Shown here: in pieces, positions 4,804 through 29,454 of the stretch | How positions within the stretch are numbered: the first letter of the stretch is position 1 | How the letters are laid out: each line of letters starts with the position of its first letter | Origin: Candidatus Thorarchaeota archaeon | Lineage (GTDB): Archaea; Asgardarchaeota; Thorarchaeia; Thorarchaeales; Thorarchaeaceae | Assembly: GCA_048882325.1 (NCBI GenBank) | Contig: JBHLRS010000015.1 | Coordinates: forward strand, 37,581-67,034 | Direction: 5' to 3' | Length of the DNA: 29,454 bases | Translations under genes and position numbers: made by a program | The notes under the pieces: model-generated | Database searches by the model: none | What the model saw: only the letters and a program-made list of their open reading frames with translations | What the model was told of the DNA's origin: nothing

Positions 4804-5418
4804 ATGACTATGGGAATCTATAATCGTAATTATCCGTTGACGACCATTGGTGGGACATTGGTGATCGTCATATACTGCACTTTCACCCTGATTTCATGGG
4901 CTCTATATCCAGGCCCATATGGACCGATTACTCATTATCTAAGTAGATTAGGGAATTTTGATTACAGTCCCATTGGAGCATATTTCTACAACTGGGGTTG
5001 TATATTAACTGGGATTGCGATGTTTCCTTTCTTCTTTGGATTGAGGGTCTGGTACACCAAGAACGTTGTTCAAGGGGTCATCTTGTTCCTTGGACTTATT
5101 TTGGGTATCGCTTCAGGAGGTGCCCTCATGGCCATTGGTTTCTACTCCGAAGATCAAGGTGCGCCACACATGGATGCATCTCGGACTTTCTTTATTATGC
5201 TCTTTGTTGTCCTTCTACTTGTCATCATTGCACTACTCTTGAATCCTCATTTCAACAAACTTGTGGGTTTGTACGGCTTGGCTATGACTTTCTCAAGTCT
5301 TTACTTTGCTTTAACCGTTGGCGGGACATTAACTGAGTGGTACTCTGTCTTTGGGTCGCTTGTGTTTGTTGGATTAGTATCGTGGAACACAATGAAGAAG
5401 TGGGAATTTCTAAAGTAG
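4804..5418 (+). CDS. DUF998-like polytopic membrane protein
   Basis: About 6 TM segments with 'Y....HYLSRLG', 'FYNWG', 'IGFYSED...H' and 'E' near the C-terminus, the pattern typical of DUF998/Frag1-like proteins. Confidence 0.7.
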   Translation: MTMGIYNRNYPLTTIGGTLVIVIYCTFTLISWALYPGPYGPITHYLSRLGNFDYSPIGAYFYNWGCILTGIAMFPFFFGLRVWYTKNVVQGVILFLGLILGIASGGALMAIGFYSEDQGAPHMDASRTFFIMLFVVLLLVIIALLLNPHFNKLVGLYGLAMTFSSLYFALTVGGTLTEWYSVFGSLVFVGLVSWNTMKKWEFLK

Positions 5419-16001: not shown

Positions 16002-17741
16002 GTGTTCCCGGTGACTGATGAGAATCGCGATATCTCGTGGCTGCACAAGGTTATGGAGGTAGTCAGGGATGGTTTTATTGTGATTCAAGATGAAGACATC
16101 ATCCTCACCAATTCTGCCTTTTCTGATATGTTAGGATACGAGAAGGATGAATTGCTGGACACCGCATTTGAGGATCTTGTTGATTCAGTTTCAAAGAGAA
16201 GAGATCAGGATATGATTGAAGCCCTTGTCACTGGTGAGCATGCAACACGTTTCATCACTCGTCTGAATGCAAAGAATAACGATGTTCTACATGTTGAAAT
16301 AACACCAACTGAGATTAAACTAGAAGGAGAACCAGCGATTATTGCGACCGTCCGGGACATCACTTCCCAGATGGAACTAGAGGCTGCTGTGACAGAACTG
16401 GAGAACAGGTTTGCTACTCTATATGATATGTCACCTGTGGCATACTTGACCTTGAATCGTAATGGAATAATAGAGCAGGTCAATGCGGCAGCTGAGAGTC
16501 TACTCGGTTGTGAAGCTGATTATCTCATTGGAAAGTCCCTCTCAGAGTTCCTCCCAGCTCCAGAACCACAGTATGACCCTGGTGCAGACATAGTACGGGA
16601 AGCTCTGCGCGGCAAGGGGGTAAATGGTCTAGAGATTCAAATGAAACGTGGTGATGACAAAATCATATGGGTCAATATTTCTTCCAGTCCACTCAATTCA
16701 GGAACTGAAAAGGTCAGTGAAATTGGACTTACTGCCTTTGATGTGACAACTCGACGTGGAGTTGAACAAAGGCTTCGACATGAGAGTGAGAGAGCGAACT
16801 TGTACATGGAGGTCATGAGTAGTGATCTAAACATGACCAACCAGAATGTTCTCTTTGCTATGGAAGATCTTTCTATCTCACTTGATCTCCCTGACCGCCT
16901 CCAGGGTTTGTTAAGTGAAACCTCATGGAGCGTTCGTAGTGCAGGTAGAATGATTGCCAACATGGGTGTCTTGATTTCGCTGGGTCAAGCACCACCAGAG
17001 AAGATTGAGACCAAACTCCAACCGCACTATAACAAAGCCGTTAGAGAAGCGACTCGTGACTTTTCCTGGAAGACCTTGAATATTACTTCGAACATTCCTA
17101 AGCAATCTTTTGATGTTGTAGGACATGCATTCCTCTGGTATGTCTTCTTCAACATCATTCATTATTGCGCAAGCTCTGACCCCAACACAACCGTAGAGCT
17201 TGAAATTAAAGCGGACATCACTGAAGATGGTGATATGGTCCGGATAGAATTCTTGGACAGTGGCCCTGGTATCCCTGATGAACTTAAGGATCAGATTTTC
17301 AGACGAACTGGAGATTCAGAAGAACAACTAGCAGGCAAAGGTCTCGGCTTGACAGTAGTTGACAGATACATAGACCATCTTGGAGGGAGAGTCTGGGTTG
17401 AAGACAGAGACCCCAAAGATCTCTCTAAAGGTAGCAAGTTCATAGTTCTTATCCCGGCTTGGAAAGAGGAGCTCAAGATACCTCCTATCATCTTTTACAA
17501 ATCGGTTCATTGTGTATTTTGTGGGCCTGTATTGGAGTCACTGACCTCGGTCTTGTCCGAGATGAACATAAGTCCATCAAACATTCACATCATCAATGTG
17601 GATGATCCTACTTCGGAGGTCACTGAAGACGAGCTACCAGCACTTCCTACGATTAACATGGGTAATAAGCAACTTGCGGGATTCATCTCAGAGGATGACC
17701 TGAGGGTCGAAGTAACATCCATGCTTCTGATGTCTGGTTGA
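16002..17741 (+). CDS. PAS-PAS histidine-kinase-like protein lacking the phospho-His, with C-terminal thioredoxin-like (CVFC) domain
   Basis: Two PAS/PAC units (N.AF..MLGY...EL / RDIT; VNAAAE.LLG / DVT). Degenerate H-box MSSDLN, G1 DSGPGI, G2 GKGLGL. Tail FYKSVHCVFC...INVDD...LPT...G. GTG start. Confidence 0.85.
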   Translation: MFPVTDENRDISWLHKVMEVVRDGFIVIQDEDIILTNSAFSDMLGYEKDELLDTAFEDLVDSVSKRRDQDMIEALVTGEHATRFITRLNAKNNDVLHVEITPTEIKLEGEPAIIATVRDITSQMELEAAVTELENRFATLYDMSPVAYLTLNRNGIIEQVNAAAESLLGCEADYLIGKSLSEFLPAPEPQYDPGADIVREALRGKGVNGLEIQMKRGDDKIIWVNISSSPLNSGTEKVSEIGLTAFDVTTRRGVEQRLRHESERANLYMEVMSSDLNMTNQNVLFAMEDLSISLDLPDRLQGLLSETSWSVRSAGRMIANMGVLISLGQAPPEKIETKLQPHYNKAVREATRDFSWKTLNITSNIPKQSFDVVGHAFLWYVFFNIIHYCASSDPNTTVELEIKADITEDGDMVRIEFLDSGPGIPDELKDQIFRRTGDSEEQLAGKGLGLTVVDRYIDHLGGRVWVEDRDPKDLSKGSKFIVLIPAWKEELKIPPIIFYKSVHCVFCGPVLESLTSVLSEMNISPSNIHIINVDDPTSEVTEDELPALPTINMGNKQLAGFISEDDLRVEVTSMLLMSG

Positions 17742-17767: not shown

Positions 17768-18238
17768 ATGCATCTATCTACAACAAAACAGGTGAGCCAA
17801 GTGGAGTTTAGAATCCGATCTATCGGTCATGTGGAGAAAAGGGATGATAACATATATCTCGTCATCAGTCCAGAGTTTTGGGATGCGACAGTTCACATTG
17901 ACTACTTTTCACATCTAATCGTTCTTTGGTGGATCCATGAACGCGATACAGAGGAGGACCGGAGCACATTACTAATGTATCCTCCCAAGAACAAAGGCGA
18001 CGAAGCCTCAGGAGCTTTCTCATGCAGATCCCCAGCGAGACCTAATCCAATAGGTCATACTATTGTCAAATTACTCTCAGTAGATAACCAAAACAAGCGG
18101 CTTAAGATAGACCATATGGATGCAAACGATGGCTCTCCCATCATTGATATCAAACCATACTTACCCACCTCAGATCGGGTGGATGACGCTCGTGTAGCTC
18201 CTTGGTTTGACACTTTAGAACCGCGTTACACTACTTAG
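17768..18238 (+). CDS. trmO: TrmO/TsaA-family tRNA (m6t6A37) methyltransferase-like protein
   Basis: FSHLIVLWW.H, GAFSCRSPARPNPIG, D..DGSPIIDIKPY. The true start may be GTG at about 17792-17801. Confidence 0.88.
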   Translation: MHLSTTKQVSQVEFRIRSIGHVEKRDDNIYLVISPEFWDATVHIDYFSHLIVLWWIHERDTEEDRSTLLMYPPKNKGDEASGAFSCRSPARPNPIGHTIVKLLSVDNQNKRLKIDHMDANDGSPIIDIKPYLPTSDRVDDARVAPWFDTLEPRYTT

Positions 18239-19154: not shown

Positions 19155-19268
19155 AGCACATCAACACAAAGCCCAATCATCAGCTATTTGAATGATATCC
19201 CTAGTTTTTGGGTAGTTGCTTTTTCTACGCAGTTTTAATAGGTACTTTTCCTATTGTGCGATTTGGAC

Positions 19269-20369
19269 ATGACAGGCAGAATTACGTGGCGGAAACCGAG
19301 TTTACCATTTATCATCAAACTCTTAGTCGTACTTCTGTTTCCACTAAATGTGTATTCAGAAGGCCAATATTACAGTTGGGTTTCCATCCTCTTTTCCATC
19401 AGCAATTATCAATCTCTTCGCCTCACATCATTCTATGCATTAGTAGTTGCAATAGTCATTCTCTTCCCTGGTTTCCTGTTTGAGCGTAGGCTCAATTCAA
19501 AACCATTCTCAGAATCTGCACGGAAGTTGACGGTTGTTTGCTGCATACTAACTTGGTTCATCGGTGTCATCCTGATGTTGTTCTTGGGTCCATTATGGCT
19601 GTCTGACTTACTTTATTTCATTATTATGAGTACACCAAACCTCACTTTTGCCTTCTTCATCATTCTTCCGACGATTATGCGTGAATCAACAAAGAGAGGT
19701 ATTACGAAAGACCTCTGGTATCTTAGCTACGGCTTTGTTAGTGCAACTTTTCGGAAGAAGTTTCGTCGCACGAGAATCCTAACAGGTGTCCTGTGGTTTG
19801 GGCTAGTATTCTCTCCCTTCCTCTTGCGTTTCAACTGGGGATGGTATTCACCAACATTTCAATTCATATCGTTGATTTTGGCAGGTTCTGCATTTCTGTA
19901 TATTCCATGGCTTGGCGCTTTTGGCTTCCAACTCCTTATCACAGTCTTCCCTGCATTGTATATACCAGTCATAGCAGTGTTGTCCTCCGTCCGTATCATC
20001 TTTGTTCGAGATATCTTCAGGTACCAAAACAAACTTGTCACAAGATCTAGACTCATATCAGTTGCTCTGCTTGGAGAGCTTCTTCCCTCAGCTCTTGTCA
20101 CAACATTTTACCTGATAACAATTCCATCATCAGGTTTTGTTTCTTACCTATTATTCTACCCCACGCCCATTCTTCCTATTATCGGACTTATCTATGCTAA
20201 GCTAGATAAAATCCAACCTATTAAAGAAGAACTCTGGCCTGATTATGAACACCGAATGTGGTTTGAGAAGGAGCGAGAACCTTACACACCTCCTCCCGCA
20301 GAGGAATCGATCAAGGTACCGTTGACATACCTTCTCATTTCCCAGATCAGAAAACGTCGAAATGGATAG
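19269..20369 (+). CDS. Hypothetical polytopic membrane protein (about 8 TM)
   Basis: Long hydrophobic ORF filling the gap between mscS and eutA, with a charged C-terminal tail. ATG 19269 preferred over GTG 19254. Confidence 0.75.
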   Translation: MTGRITWRKPSLPFIIKLLVVLLFPLNVYSEGQYYSWVSILFSISNYQSLRLTSFYALVVAIVILFPGFLFERRLNSKPFSESARKLTVVCCILTWFIGVILMLFLGPLWLSDLLYFIIMSTPNLTFAFFIILPTIMRESTKRGITKDLWYLSYGFVSATFRKKFRRTRILTGVLWFGLVFSPFLLRFNWGWYSPTFQFISLILAGSAFLYIPWLGAFGFQLLITVFPALYIPVIAVLSSVRIIFVRDIFRYQNKLVTRSRLISVALLGELLPSALVTTFYLITIPSSGFVSYLLFYPTPILPIIGLIYAKLDKIQPIKEELWPDYEHRMWFEKEREPYTPPPAEESIKVPLTYLLISQIRKRRNG

Positions 20370-20377
20370 GGGTTGGT

Positions 20378-21829
20378 TCAATCAGAATCAAACACTAAGG
20401 TCTTAATTACTACTGGAACAACAACATCCTCGATGATTGGTTCTCCTATGTCCACGAAGTCTCCTTCTTTAAGTCGAATCTCATCTATCGAGAGTAATTC
20501 GTTTGTAACTCCGGTTTCGCGTTTCATGACATTACCAACACTATTCCCAATATCAGCATCGAAGCACATGAAGATTGGTGCTTTGCTATTGATGGAGTTC
20601 GGCAATGCACTGACAACTCCTGTTGCGAACTCTGTGAGATTCTCATATGATGGTCTAACAGAGTTGTTGAACGCCAAGATGAGAGGGTCCAACCCTTCAA
20701 TCAAATCGAACCTTGAAAGTGCACTCTCTATGGCCCTCCTGACATCATCAGCTGAGGGTTTTCTTGTTCCAATGAATGGTTCGATTACGGGTAGATTTCG
20801 TAGTGGATATTTAAGACCCGAAGTGAGAAAGGTTGTAGATCCACTTACTTGAAGGCTAAAGTTTCCAGCTCCAATCACAGTTGCACGTATCCTGTGCTCG
20901 GGCTTACCAATTGGCAAGCTTGCATCCTCTGCTTTCTTCATGATTGCTTGTGCTAGGAAGACACCGAGGTCATTGAACTCACGTTCCTCGCTGTTGTAGA
21001 TGTATTCTGCAACACCGCCGGAGAATGTAAGGCTGTCAATCTTCTCATTGTAAATTAGTGGAGGTGCCATCATGAGCATCTTAGTTGTCTGGGACAACTG
21101 CTTCTGTTGGATACACTCCATGAGTGCTTCCGCTAATACATCCGCGAGTTTCATCTTGTCTGATTCTGAGATAATCTGACCTATCTCTAGATTGAGCCCG
21201 TTTGCTTTTGCTATATTCCTACCAGTATCTTCCAACCTCACGATGTGTTGATTCTCATCAATTGCAAGTAGCCGTCCTCCTACATTGATAGCAGTGGTTG
21301 CGACTACTCGACCCTCTTTGCATACAGCAATATTCGAAGATCCCCCGCCAATATCGACATTCATGATTGTTTCTTGAGTGTCAGCTGATTTTGTAACAGC
21401 GCCAGAACCATATGCTGCAAGAACTGATTCAAAGTTTGGTCCTGCTGTGGCTGCCACGAATTTCCCTGCCTCACCCGCTAGGGCACTGACAATCCACTCT
21501 GCATTCTCTTTCTTAGCTGTTTCGCCTGTGATGATGACTGCTCCCGTGTCGATATCCGAGACCTTGATTCCTGCTGTGTGGTAGTCATGAAGGAGTAGGT
21601 CTCTCAGTTGTTCAAAATCGATATTTCTATGGTCCCTAAAAGGAGTCAAATGTATTGGACCAGAATGGAGAATCTTGCGTTCCTTGACCTCGAACTTTTC
21701 GGTTCGGGAAGCTTCATCCTTCTCAAGTACAAGCTGACTGAACACGACATGTGAGGTTGATGAACCGATATCAACTCCCACACTAGTAAGTTCCTTTCGC
21801 TTTGTTTTGACAATCATGACCGTGTTCAC
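20378..21829 (-). CDS. eutA: Ethanolamine ammonia-lyase reactivating factor EutA-like ATPase (ASKHA fold)
   Basis: SVGVDIGSSTSHVVFS, TGAVIITGETAKKENA, AG.FVAATAGP..ES.LA..GSGA, DIGGG, NVGGRL, FSGGVA, IRATVIGAG, SIDEI...GDFVDIG.P....VVPVVIKTLVF. Confidence 0.92.
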   Translation of the reverse strand: MNTVMIVKTKRKELTSVGVDIGSSTSHVVFSQLVLEKDEASRTEKFEVKERKILHSGPIHLTPFRDHRNIDFEQLRDLLLHDYHTAGIKVSDIDTGAVIITGETAKKENAEWIVSALAGEAGKFVAATAGPNFESVLAAYGSGAVTKSADTQETIMNVDIGGGSSNIAVCKEGRVVATTAINVGGRLLAIDENQHIVRLEDTGRNIAKANGLNLEIGQIISESDKMKLADVLAEALMECIQQKQLSQTTKMLMMAPPLIYNEKIDSLTFSGGVAEYIYNSEEREFNDLGVFLAQAIMKKAEDASLPIGKPEHRIRATVIGAGNFSLQVSGSTTFLTSGLKYPLRNLPVIEPFIGTRKPSADDVRRAIESALSRFDLIEGLDPLILAFNNSVRPSYENLTEFATGVVSALPNSINSKAPIFMCFDADIGNSVGNVMKRETGVTNELLSIDEIRLKEGDFVDIGEPIIEDVVVPVVIKTLVFDSD

Positions 21830-27549: not shown

Positions 27550-28497
27550 ATGGTCGGGATTCAGGATATCTATGATGCACACGAACGGATTCGAGACTAC
27601 GCATTATGGACCCCGGTCATGACCTCTTCTACAATCGATAAAATGACCGAGTGCCAAGTGTTTTTCAAGTGCGAGAACTTTCAACGCGTAGGTGCGTTCA
27701 AATTCAGAGGTGCACTCAACGCTGTTTCTCAGCTAACAGAGAAGGAACGAGCAAGAGGAGTTATTGCACACTCGTCAGGCAACCATGCACAAGCATTGGC
27801 ATTGGCTGCATCACTTAAGGGAGTTAAAGCTACTATAGTAATGCCCCAAAACTCGCCCAAAGTGAAGGTAGACGCGACACGGGGTTATGGGGCTGAAATT
27901 GTATTCTGTGAGAATTCTACGGAGAGCAGAGTTAAAGTAGCTAATGAATTGGTCGAGAAGCATAGCTACACTTTGATCCATCCGTATAACGATGAACGTA
28001 TAGTCGCTGGAGCTGGAACTGCAACTTTGGAACTCATTGAGGAAGTGGATGAGCTAGACTATGTCTTTGCACCCGTTGGTGGTGGAGGACTTCTCAGTGG
28101 TACATCCATCGCGACTAAGAGTCTCTGTCCAAAGGCGAAAGTCATTGCTGTAGAACCTGAGAAGGCAGATGATGCATTCCGCTCATTCAGGGATGGACGA
28201 ATCTATCCAAGTGTCTATCCCGATACTATTGCTGATGGACTCAGGACCCAGTTGGGAGAGATTACTTTTCAAATCATCAAGGAATACGTGGATTCCATTA
28301 TCACTGTATCCGAACAAGAGATAGTGGATGCAATGAAGCTACTATGGGAGAGGATGAAACTAGTAGTTGAGCCCTCTGGAGCCGTTTCGCTTGCTGGTCT
28401 CCTTAAAATGATGGATGATTTGAATGATGAACGCGTTGGTGTAATCATCAGCGGTGGAAATATAGACCTCTCAGAGTTCTTGTCAAAACTTCTATAA
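27550..28497 (+). CDS. Fold-type II PLP enzyme, serine racemase / threonine-serine dehydratase family (no ACT domain)
   Basis: FKCENFQRVGAFKFRGA (PLP Lys), HSSGNHAQ, PVGGGGLLSG, TIADGL, EPSGA, SGGN. ATG 27550 preferred over TTG 27523. Confidence 0.93.
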   Translation: MVGIQDIYDAHERIRDYALWTPVMTSSTIDKMTECQVFFKCENFQRVGAFKFRGALNAVSQLTEKERARGVIAHSSGNHAQALALAASLKGVKATIVMPQNSPKVKVDATRGYGAEIVFCENSTESRVKVANELVEKHSYTLIHPYNDERIVAGAGTATLELIEEVDELDYVFAPVGGGGLLSGTSIATKSLCPKAKVIAVEPEKADDAFRSFRDGRIYPSVYPDTIADGLRTQLGEITFQIIKEYVDSIITVSEQEIVDAMKLLWERMKLVVEPSGAVSLAGLLKMMDDLNDERVGVIISGGNIDLSEFLSKLL

Positions 28498-29454
28498 TCC
28501 GTTTTCATTATCGCGAGTTTTGGGAAGCCATACAACAAATTCAGCACCACTCTTTGGCTGACCCTTTACCCGGTTTCTCACGTCAATACGACCGCCATAT
28601 TTTTCGCAGATCTGCTTTGATTGATGTAACCCCACACCTCCGTAACGTCTCGACACATCAAATATCGCAGTTTTTAGCGAGCTTGATATGCCCTCTCCAT
28701 TATCACCAATAGCTATCTCATACCCCTCTCCCTTCTCTTTGAGGGATACCCAGACTATCCTTTCCTCGCGTGGATTGTGTTCAATGGCATTCTCAATTAG
28801 ATTGTCAAGTAATTGTTCTAAGAATTGGTCTGCATCAATGAATGCATTAAGTACATTCATTGTTACTTTGAATTTAACATCCCAATGTCGCTCTTGTTGA
28901 GCTTTGACTACTGACTCAAGGGTTGTACTTAGTTTTCTGATTCTCAAAGGTAGTGACATCAATGACTCCGTTACTTTTACCTTTGAAATCATACTTTGAC
29001 ATCTTTCAACAGATGATACAATTTGCCCAAGAAGACGACGTGCGTCAGGATCCTGAAGTTTCAGCTCCATGACCATCGTGCTTCCTAGGATAATCTGCAA
29101 CTGGTTTCGGAAATCATGAGCCATGAGGTCAATGAGATGCATTGCACGCTCTTTTTGCGTTTCAATGTGTTTCTCTGCTTCAATGCGGTCAGTCACATCC
29201 ATTGCTAAAACTTGCAGTGCTGAGGTGCCTTCATACTCAACAGGCGAGCCAAATAGTTCAAGCCACTGCATATCCCCATCTCTTTGAAATACTCTGATCA
29301 ACATTGGAATCTTATTTGGTGGCTCTCCTTCCATTAACTCCTGGAGTCGAGTGGTAATCATCTCCCAGTCATCTGGGTGAATCAAATTTTGAATATCTTT
29401 CGGAGAGAGTGCAAGAACCTCGTCAACTGTAATCTCAAGGAATTCAGCAAATGC
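28492..29454 (-). CDS. PAS-domain sensor histidine kinase, 3' part; starts beyond the window
   Basis: The frame stays open to the window edge (AFAEFLEITVDEVLALSPKDIQNLIHPDD). H-box MAHDFRN, N-box NLIENA, G1 DNGEGI, G2 GGVGL. Convergent 6-bp overlap with the PLP enzyme gene. Confidence 0.9.
   Translation of the reverse strand, partial: AFAEFLEITVDEVLALSPKDIQNLIHPDDWEMITTRLQELMEGEPPNKIPMLIRVFQRDGDMQWLELFGSPVEYEGTSALQVLAMDVTDRIEAEKHIETQKERAMHLIDLMAHDFRNQLQIILGSTMVMELKLQDPDARRLLGQIVSSVERCQSMISKVKVTESLMSLPLRIRKLSTTLESVVKAQQERHWDVKFKVTMNVLNAFIDADQFLEQLLDNLIENAIEHNPREERIVWVSLKEKGEGYEIAIGDNGEGISSSLKTAIFDVSRRYGGVGLHQSKQICEKYGGRIDVRNRVKGQPKSGAEFVVWLPKTRDNENGL

Follow-up and report, generated by a model that had tools for sequence, protein, structure and literature searches.

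A conserved, predicted pseudo-histidine kinase ending in a CxxC thioredoxin-fold domain in a Thorarchaeota genome

The 29,454-nucleotide stretch of a Candidatus Thorarchaeota genome analysed here (the window) carries on its forward strand a gene for a PAS-PAS protein with the core of a histidine kinase, in which the phospho-acceptor histidine is replaced and to which a small thioredoxin-fold (Trx) domain is joined at the C-terminus. The open reading frame (ORF), at 16002..17741, encodes 579 amino acids (aa) counted from a GTG start, and residues are numbered here in that 579-aa frame. An identical protein in the database has 562 aa and was called from the ATG at 16053, which may be the true start; the only annotation of the kinase-thioredoxin fusion is 'PAS domain S-box protein'. 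A second gene in the same genome encodes an intact relative, referred to below as the sister. The features of the window gene are as follows.

16002..17741, + strand: whole gene of the predicted PAS-PAS-DHp-like-HATPase_c-Trx pseudo-histidine kinase (ORF translation, Pfam)
16041..16388, + strand: PAS domain 1, residues ~14-129 (TIGR00229, E 1.1e-30 over residues 14-129; Pfam PAS families)
16404..16757, + strand: PAS domain 2, residues ~135-252 (PF13426 PAS_9, residues 145-249, E 3.7e-24)
16767..16988, + strand: DHp-like two-helix hairpin, residues 256-293 and 298-329 (AlphaFold2 model and Foldseek, without a Pfam HisKA match)
16821..16823, + strand: Ser274 (AGT) at the position of the phospho-acceptor histidine (DNA reading, alignment with the histidine of the sister)
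16833..16835, + strand: Met278, four residues after the histidine position (H+4), where the sister clade has the Asn of the phosphatase motif
17004..17468, + strand: degenerate catalytic/ATP-binding (CA) domain of the HATPase_c type, residues ~335-489 (PF02518, E 2.1e-15; HK853 in the PDB, E 1.4e-9)
17163..17165, + strand: Tyr388 at the position of the Mg2+-chelating N-box Asn, N380 of HK853 (HMMER alignment); Asn384 is kept
17256..17270, + strand: G1 box, DSGPG, residues 419-423, with Asp419 nearly invariant in the clade
17334..17351, + strand: G2 box, GKGLGL, residues 445-450, conserved
17484..17738, + strand: C-terminal domain predicted to have the thioredoxin fold, residues 495-579 (AlphaFold2, Foldseek, structural search, profile match)
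17511..17522, + strand: CxxC motif, Cys504-Val-Phe-Cys507, preceded by His503 and followed by Pro509 (DNA reading; present in 235 of 235 family members)
17646..17648, + strand: Pro549 of LPALPT, at the thioredoxin cis-Pro position just before strand beta3 (alignment and model; the cis conformation is assigned by position only)

Over the whole protein Pfam finds two PAS domains and HATPase_c (residues 383-486, E 2.1e-15). HisKA has no Pfam match anywhere in the protein, residues 255-400 and 490-579 scanned alone by Pfam gave no match, and scans of the DHp region and the tail alone with Pfam and NCBIfam returned nothing useful. Residues 255-579 were modelled with AlphaFold2 (AF2) from an alignment of 72 sequences. 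The model has a mean predicted local distance difference test score (pLDDT) of 87 and consists of two long helices, an alpha/beta domain and a small beta-alpha-beta-beta-beta-alpha domain. In Foldseek the helices together with the alpha/beta part match CpxA, HK853, WalK and other class I histidine kinases with E values of about 1e-12. The NifL model TIGR02938 scores 40.2 bits against a cut-off of 242, over residues 399-468 only. Among the features of a class I kinase, the DHp hairpin and a Bergerat-fold CA domain with G1 (DxGxG) and G2 (GxGxG) are present; the H-box histidine, the Mg2+-chelating N-box Asn and the H+4 Thr/Asn of the E/DxxT/N motif are absent.

A preliminary description of the locus had read a serine in the H box (AGT at 16821-16823, within M-S-S-D-L-N), the loss of the second N-box Asn and intact G1 and G2 boxes, and all of these readings were reproduced. 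The DNA at 16806-16838 encodes M-E-V-M-S-S-D-L-N-M-T, the codons from 16806 being ATG GAG GTC ATG AGT AGT GAT CTA AAC. Because AGT is at least two base changes from a histidine codon (CAY), a single-base sequencing error is unlikely. The N box reads FFNIIHYC and aligns without gaps to HK853 (HMMER, E 1.4e-9), placing Asn384 on N376 and Tyr388 on N380; N380 of HK853 is the conserved Mg2+-chelating residue of the N box (PMC4865847). A register shifted by four residues, in which Asn384 would be the Mg-binding Asn, is excluded by this ungapped alignment, and Asn384 as metal ligand is excluded also by the presence of Asn388 in all His-bearing relatives and in the basal members of the His-less clade. 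The two other kinases of the window have both residues, as had been described: LTHDLGN goes with NLLRNT in one and MAHDFRN with NLIENA in the other.

These losses are shared by a large group of orthologues. A protein search with residues 260-579 returned 293 relatives, and the best 120 of these are nearly all 560-610 aa long, cover the whole query including the tail, and fall in identity to 53%; the named sources among these 120 are Thorarchaeota or related Asgard metagenome-assembled genomes. At least 59 genomes have an uninterrupted, full-length frame; the orthologues are 50-87% identical and have the same losses. Conservation was counted on 111 full-length His-less orthologues. Position 274 is Ser in 89, Asn in 11, Thr in six and Gln in five, and His in none. 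Position 388 is Tyr in 65, Phe in 31, Asn in ten and His in five, ie Asn is lacking in 101. At H+4 there is Met, Ile, Leu or Glu in all 111 and never Asn or Thr; 122 of the 124 His-bearing relatives described below have Asn there. Asn384 is invariant, Asp419 is kept in 109 of the 111 and G2 (GxGLGL) is conserved, whereas the G1 glycines vary (Gly421 in 68, Gly423 in 81). Four histidines outside the H box, His342, His375, His387 and His503, are invariant, as are the tail residues His503, Cys504, Phe506, Cys507, Pro509 and Leu545-Pro-Ala-Leu-Pro549.

Every domain is under strong purifying selection. The ratio of nonsynonymous to synonymous substitution rates (dN/dS) is 0.083 for PAS1, 0.048 for PAS2, 0.052 for DHp, 0.085 for CA and 0.070 for Trx, as determined on nine orthologue pairs with unsaturated synonymous sites, the window gene itself being saturated against other species. 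The kinase fold is thus kept, the catalytic residues are lost and the sequence is under purifying selection, which is the pattern of a pseudo-histidine kinase. On this comparative evidence we take the product of 16002..17741 to be a true pseudo-histidine kinase, neither decayed nor misread. The preliminary description had proposed a catalytically dead scaffold, and that part of it holds: both the histidine and the Mg-chelating Asn are missing, and the whole clade is His-less under selection. It had asked for the selection analysis, and it had named strain-specific decay, a tail without the thioredoxin fold and unconserved cysteines as observations that would count against it; none of the three was found.

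The tail of about 85 aa had been predicted to have a thioredoxin fold from its CxxC and cis-Pro pattern, and modelling agrees. It runs from His503-Cys-Val-Phe-Cys507-Gly-Pro (TGT codons at 17511-13 and 17520-22) through INVDD and LPALPT to a C-terminal helix. Residues 490-579 modelled alone with AF2 give a pLDDT of 92 and a predicted template-modelling score of 0.84, in the order strand, helix, strand, two strands, helix. Thioredoxins and glutaredoxins make up most of the top Foldseek matches of this model in the PDB, with template-modelling (TM) scores of 0.65-0.72 on the query. An exhaustive structural search (VIA) is dominated by thioredoxins, the best being thioredoxin y1 (Z 9.6, root-mean-square deviation 3.2, 85 residues aligned). 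In the AF2 model Cys504 lies in the loop before helix 1 (model residues 18-31), Cys507 at its first turn, and Pro549 precedes the strand at 61-64, which in the model is the classical geometry of a thioredoxin active site. We conclude from the models that the tail is predicted to be a thioredoxin fold.

The preliminary description left the choice between a thiol-redox and a KaiB-like tail. The fold alone cannot separate the two, because the thioredoxins score Z 9.0-9.6 and KaiB 4kun 8.8, the N-terminal domain of SasA (1t4z) 8.2 and fold-switched KaiB (8ubh) 8.1, gaps of only about 1-1.5 units. The motifs separate them: the CxxC and cis-Pro are invariant, and the two together are not known as a KaiB signature. 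Together with the C-terminal position of the domain and the lack of a match to the Pfam KaiB family (PF07689) in residues 490-579 up to E 10, this points to a redox-type Trx and makes the KaiB-like half of the earlier suggestion improbable. The curated Trx and glutaredoxin (Grx) models of Pfam and NCBIfam do not match the tail. A profile of the tail against the PDB weakly matches thioredoxin 6mos (E 0.0019) and the MJ0307 thioredoxin 1fo5 (E 0.073), and aligns end to end with the 85 residues of the latter. In a single-sequence phmmer search of the PDB with the tail the sole match was CheC/FliN, which was judged to be due to chance. Against 1.84 billion representative proteins the profile had only 78 matches, about 20 of them of kinase length; the others are mostly CxFC proteins of about 105-120 aa that stand alone, and the named ones are all of Thorarchaeota type. 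The nearest of these stand-alone relatives match TIGR00411, the MJ0307 family, below its cut-off. The closest relatives of the tail are the small archaeal thioredoxins of MJ0307 type.

It had been supposed that the Trx domain replaced the lost output of the kinase, and that loss of the histidine and the fusion would occur together. Neither is supported. The genome that contains the window (G000) also contains the sister (P0122; match at G000:C7:117408-118382, ORF at L002 1474-3258 on the minus strand of G000:C7), which shares 46% identity with the window protein across DHp-CA-Trx and 35% in the PAS region. Its product of 594 aa reads YLEVMTHDLNN in the H box, FFNISHNS in the N box, DQGPG and GRGLGL in G1 and G2, and KSNHCVFC...LPMLP in the tail. 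It has 217 relatives of identical five-domain build. In an alignment of 67 sequences of the sister clade the histidine, the Mg-chelating Asn, the G1 Asp and both G1 glycines are invariant, two of the three G2 glycines are invariant and the third nearly so, and of the six tail cysteines five are invariant and the sixth nearly so. A joint alignment of 235 proteins has the CxxC in all 235, and its 124 His-bearing members all have Asn388. The fusion predates the loss of the histidine, because the His-bearing relatives, 124 out of 124 and the sister of the same genome among them, carry the same Trx tail. By these alignments the Trx domain is an ancestral feature of a lineage-specific histidine kinase-thioredoxin (HK-Trx) family and not a substitute for a lost output. 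We therefore describe the HK-Trx family, from its sequences, as predicted cytoplasmic PAS-PAS-DHp-CA sensor kinases with a C-terminal CxxC Trx-fold domain, restricted to Thorarchaeota.

The tails of the two clades are not the same in their cysteines. In the sister clade six are found in 113 of 124 tails (CGRxTC before strand 1, the CxxC, a single Cys in strand 4 and CYP at the C-terminus), which suggests, on pattern, that the ancestral domain had a metal or Fe-S site. All 111 tails of the dead clade have the CxxC pair only, plus a stray cysteine in ten of them. The genome also encodes a stand-alone 110-aa protein (L041 1438-1770, + strand, on G000:C31) with a Cys-rich pattern like that of the sister tail (CGQCSC, CVFC, VC, CFC).

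A maximum-likelihood tree of 43 non-redundant DHp-CA-Trx sequences places the His-less proteins in one clade (Shimodaira-Hasegawa-like approximate likelihood-ratio support 97) nested among His-bearing ones, so that one change of state suffices. The basal His-less branches have Ser and retain Asn388; the derived clade that includes the window protein has Tyr, Phe or His at 388. In this history an intact HK-Trx gene was duplicated, and one lineage then lost the histidine, the H+4 Asn and the four accessory cysteines of the tail. P0127, a protein of 582 aa from a JGI metagenome, has LTHDMTN, Asn388 and a tail without the four accessory cysteines, and sits on a long branch beside the dead clade. 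It may be an intermediate form, and it weakly suggests that the tail was simplified before the histidine was lost. The order of losses would then be the tail cysteines, probably first, followed by the histidine with the phosphatase Asn, and finally the N-box Asn independently in different genera.

The distribution was surveyed in 88 genomes of the class, G000 included, every match being fetched and its columns read by tblastn. A match was found in 76 of the 88. Both forms are present in 50 genomes, and only the intact form in 16, which include the whole of genera g2, g8, g10, g13 and g15. Nine have only the dead form, seven of them less than 90% complete, and 12 have neither, the unclassifiable G063 being counted there. 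For genomes at least 90% complete the corresponding numbers are 28 with both, nine intact only, two dead only and two with neither. The residue at the histidine position differs between genera (Ser, Asn, Thr, Gln, Arg or Lys), so that, as far as the sequences tell, no particular residue seems to be required at position 274; this variability argues against a new Ser/Thr acceptor there. Damage to the N box is likewise lineage-specific, with N388 changed to Tyr, Phe or His in g1, N384 to Val in g12 and N388 to Ser in G011. Residues and N-box lesions that differ from genus to genus are the pattern expected once catalysis is no longer selected. In at least nine genomes of genus g1 a single contig carries both genes on the same strand, about 18-20 kb from each other. 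In G000 11.7 kb separate the dead gene from the end of its contig C15 (window end 29454) and 5.6 kb the sister from the end of C7 (124004), in matching orientations; the two contigs are probably adjacent in the genome.

The neighbourhood of the gene points to no partner. Twenty-six nt after its stop codon there is a gene of 156 aa with a TrmO_N domain only (PF01980, E 1.1e-27; 17768-18238, + strand), and genera g1 and g14 have a TrmO_N-like neighbour here as well, at 48-76% identity. Upstream, on the opposite strand, is a radical-SAM gene. Elsewhere in the window, the PAS-HisKA-HATPase_c kinase with MAHDFRN (28492-29454, - strand) runs off the contig end and lacks its N-terminus. An ORF of 371 aa at 19254-20369 (+) has no Pfam match up to E 10, and two others, of 204 aa at 4804-5418 (+) and 159 aa at 20373-20852 (+), have none up to E 0.001. 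Receiver (REC) domain matches occur elsewhere in the genome (ten), as do seven matches to KaiC-type ATPases (PF06745); no KaiC-like ORF was found in the window. One KaiC-type ATPase gene (C7:62282-63004, +) adjoins two single-domain receiver genes (C7:63054-63383 and 63467-63799, -; the region is G000:C7:62282-63799). At another locus, on contig C32, an ORF for a 110-aa CAFC thioredoxin-like protein (L042 1450-1782, in the locus 2-1782 on the - strand) matches the tail profile with E 9e-9 and, at 27.3 bits, narrowly attains the cut-off of Pfam KaiB. The beginning of a KaiC-type ATPase ORF (707-1453) overlaps with it; behind that ORF comes another of KaiC type (2-682), and a Ras-like small GTPase ORF (2376-2960, +) adjoins them. 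By its gene content the C32 locus of this Asgard genome may form a KaiB-like/KaiC-like module.

Phosphorylation-independent signalling, or modulation of partner kinases, had been the suggestion for this protein, and on the sequence evidence it is still the best reading. In the form in which we hold it, with moderate confidence, the protein is a conserved non-catalytic PAS sensor, a dead paralogue of the HK-Trx family, that works by contacting other proteins, of which the sister kinase may be one, and/or through its dithiol. The dead copy would neither autophosphorylate nor transfer or remove phosphate. Its PAS domains would still sense, and the cue may differ from that of the sister, because the PAS regions of the two are only 35% identical. 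The signal would be passed on by protein-protein contacts of the DHp/CA core, as in DivL or NifL, the most economical partner being the co-inherited intact sister, reached by heterodimerisation or by competition. The retained dithiol of the Trx domain could serve as a redox switch or as a contact site. A heterodimer model of the two DHp-CA cores gave an interface score (ipSAE) of 0.50 against 0.00 for the best control, which is weak support: the mark is reached by 58 of 80 solved complexes and by two of 110 mismatches, and with an ipSAE of 0.60 or less it is reached by only seven of the 80 solved complexes and by both of the passing mismatches. Agreement between runs covers at least 73% of the contacts, and the pLDDT of the partners is at least 80.

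Several observations weigh against this interpretation. The heterodimer score, besides being weak, cannot tell heterodimers from homodimers and may merely reflect likeness to solved histidine-kinase dimers. Positions 258, 262, 288, 289 and 322 of the DHp region are fixed differently in the two clades, which could mean insulation from the sister or equally a surface for a new partner. The co-occurrence of the two forms is largely one inherited event and not independent support, because the genomes are kin, and the dead form is found without a classified sister in two genomes at least 90% complete, G081 and G076, the latter having an unclassified second match. The dead gene and its sister are not in an operon, and a search of the 29-kb window and of 18 kb surrounding the sister found no REC domain. 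Asp419, G2 and, in the window protein, G1 are intact, and to judge from these motifs the protein may bind nucleotide or have residual ATPase activity.

This last point leads to the possibility of a GHKL enzyme that binds ATP and phosphorylates another histidine (His342, His375, His387 or His503) or Ser/Thr of a partner, in the manner of SpoIIAB/RsbW or PDK/BCK, or that acts as an ATPase. The conserved Asp419 (109 of 111) and GxGLGL, the intact G1 of the window protein, the four invariant histidines outside the H box and the two N-box Asn still present in basal members of the dead clade would all fit such an enzyme. We nevertheless think it quite improbable: the Mg2+-chelating Asn is Tyr here and absent in 101 of the 111, the G1 glycines are eroding (68 and 81 of 111), and the N box has been damaged independently, at different positions in different genera, which indicates relaxed constraint on catalysis. 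Moreover, His375, His387 and His503 are conserved in the intact sister clade too, so that no new clade-specific acceptor is found among them. Decay into a pseudogene, a strain-specific lesion or an assembly error has nothing more in its favour than the missing catalytic residues themselves; it is refuted by the full-length frame in at least 59 genomes, the shared losses, the dN/dS of 0.05-0.085 and a serine codon two changes from histidine, and we give it virtually no credence.

The other rivals place the function in the tail. The protein could be a PAS-controlled thiol-disulfide oxidoreductase in which the dead core serves for allosteric transmission and the Trx domain is the output, independently of the sister; this domain would reduce or oxidise a target protein or enter a mixed disulfide with it. 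The CxxC, its preceding histidine, Pro509 and the cis-Pro motif are invariant in the 235 family members, the N-terminal cysteine occupies the loop ahead of helix 1, where active thioredoxins also have it, the nearest stand-alone relatives match TIGR00411 below its cut-off while the tail profile aligns full-length on 1fo5, and the dN/dS of the Trx domain is 0.07. Set against this, the tail matches no curated Trx or Grx model, and neither a gene for thioredoxin reductase nor one for an obvious substrate is linked to it. The four accessory cysteines have been lost here, though the sister and the stand-alone relatives keep them, so that Trx chemistry appears reduced and not elaborated, and a mere linker role would leave the equally strong constraint on DHp and CA unexplained. 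We regard an oxidoreductase as possible but unlikely. A KaiB/SasA-like adaptor, docking the sensor on a KaiC-like ATPase with the cysteines incidental, would suit the Z scores of KaiB and of the SasA N-terminal domain, which come within about 1.5 of the best thioredoxin, the seven KaiC-type ATPase matches in the genome, and the C32 relative that just reaches the KaiB cut-off and overlaps the start of a KaiC-like gene. The tail itself, however, has no Pfam KaiB match even at E 10, and sub-cut-off matches to Pfam KaiB occur also in control genomes, eg Methanocaldococcus jannaschii, so that a borderline match is unspecific. The invariant CxxC and cis-Pro are the signature of a redox thioredoxin, the domain is C-terminal here and N-terminal in SasA, and the window has no KaiC-like gene that we could find. 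An adaptor of this kind is thus a very doubtful alternative, and the non-catalytic PAS sensor acting through protein contacts and/or its dithiol remains the reading we prefer.

Among known systems the closest functional analogue of such a sensor would be DivL, followed by NifL. DivL of Caulobacter crescentus is a multi-PAS pseudo-histidine kinase for which signalling by contacts with a response regulator and with the kinase CckA, instead of phosphotransfer, has been proposed (PMC4211667). As in DivL, there are several PAS domains and a conserved DHp-CA core with the acceptor histidine replaced. DivL is bacterial, has Tyr at the histidine position and no Trx domain, whereas in the Asgard archaeon the replacement varies between relatives (S/N/T/Q/R/K), the Mg-binding Asn and the H+4 Asn are lost as well, and a CxxC Trx domain follows CA. 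NifL is a PAS-PAS-H-GHKL anti-activator of NifA that acts by protein-protein interaction and is not known to act by histidine phosphorylation. It shares with the window protein the PAS-PAS region, a helical domain and a GHKL nucleotide-binding domain, but it lacks the Trx domain, there is no nif context at this gene, and the TIGR02938 match is weak and partial. The intact sister has the same five domains with the HCVFC and cis-Pro motifs and differs in keeping the histidine, the H+4 Asn, both N-box Asn, strict G1 and G2 boxes and a six-Cys tail.

For the tail, the MJ0307-family thioredoxins (TIGR00411; 1fo5) have the same minimal Trx fold of about 85 residues, with the CxxC at the start of helix 1 and the cis-Pro before beta3; the scores are far below cut-off, the motif is HC[VIL]FC here and CPHC there, and only here is the domain fused to a kinase core. 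SasA of cyanobacteria likewise has a Trx-like fold covalently joined to a histidine-kinase core (Z 8.2). That domain is N-terminal, is not known to have a CxxC, and binds KaiC, and the SasA kinase is active; in the window protein the domain is C-terminal with an invariant CxxC and the kinase is predicted to be dead. RegB/PrrB and ArcB couple thiol chemistry to a two-component kinase, but through a single cysteine in the DHp domain or linker of active kinases and not through a dedicated Trx-fold domain. The preliminary description did not recognise the architecture, and in the literature searched we too found no description of a kinase-thioredoxin fusion or of a Thorarchaeota pseudokinase, which is limited evidence of absence. 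A census of archaeal two-component systems (PMC5847659) has REC-thioredoxin-reductase fusions in Heimdallarchaeota and not the kinase-thioredoxin architecture.

The orthologue group shows a stepwise route from kinase to pseudokinase in Asgard archaea, with an intact sister in the same genomes for comparison; to our knowledge the pseudo-histidine kinases described so far are few, and bacterial. Both paralogues are soluble and of about 580 residues, so that their expression and assay would not require a culture of the archaeon. A functional dithiol would couple two-component signalling directly to redox state in anaerobic sediment archaea. A bolder proposal, which we put forward tentatively and think unlikely as a whole, is that HK-Trx represents a new design for signalling, with a two-component kinase core permanently joined to a thioredoxin-type dithiol, the His-less paralogue having thiol-disulfide exchange or redox-gated binding as its sole output. 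Such a 'redox relay' would be a counterpart of the phosphorelay and, if true, would occur in the archaeal lineage closest to eukaryotes.

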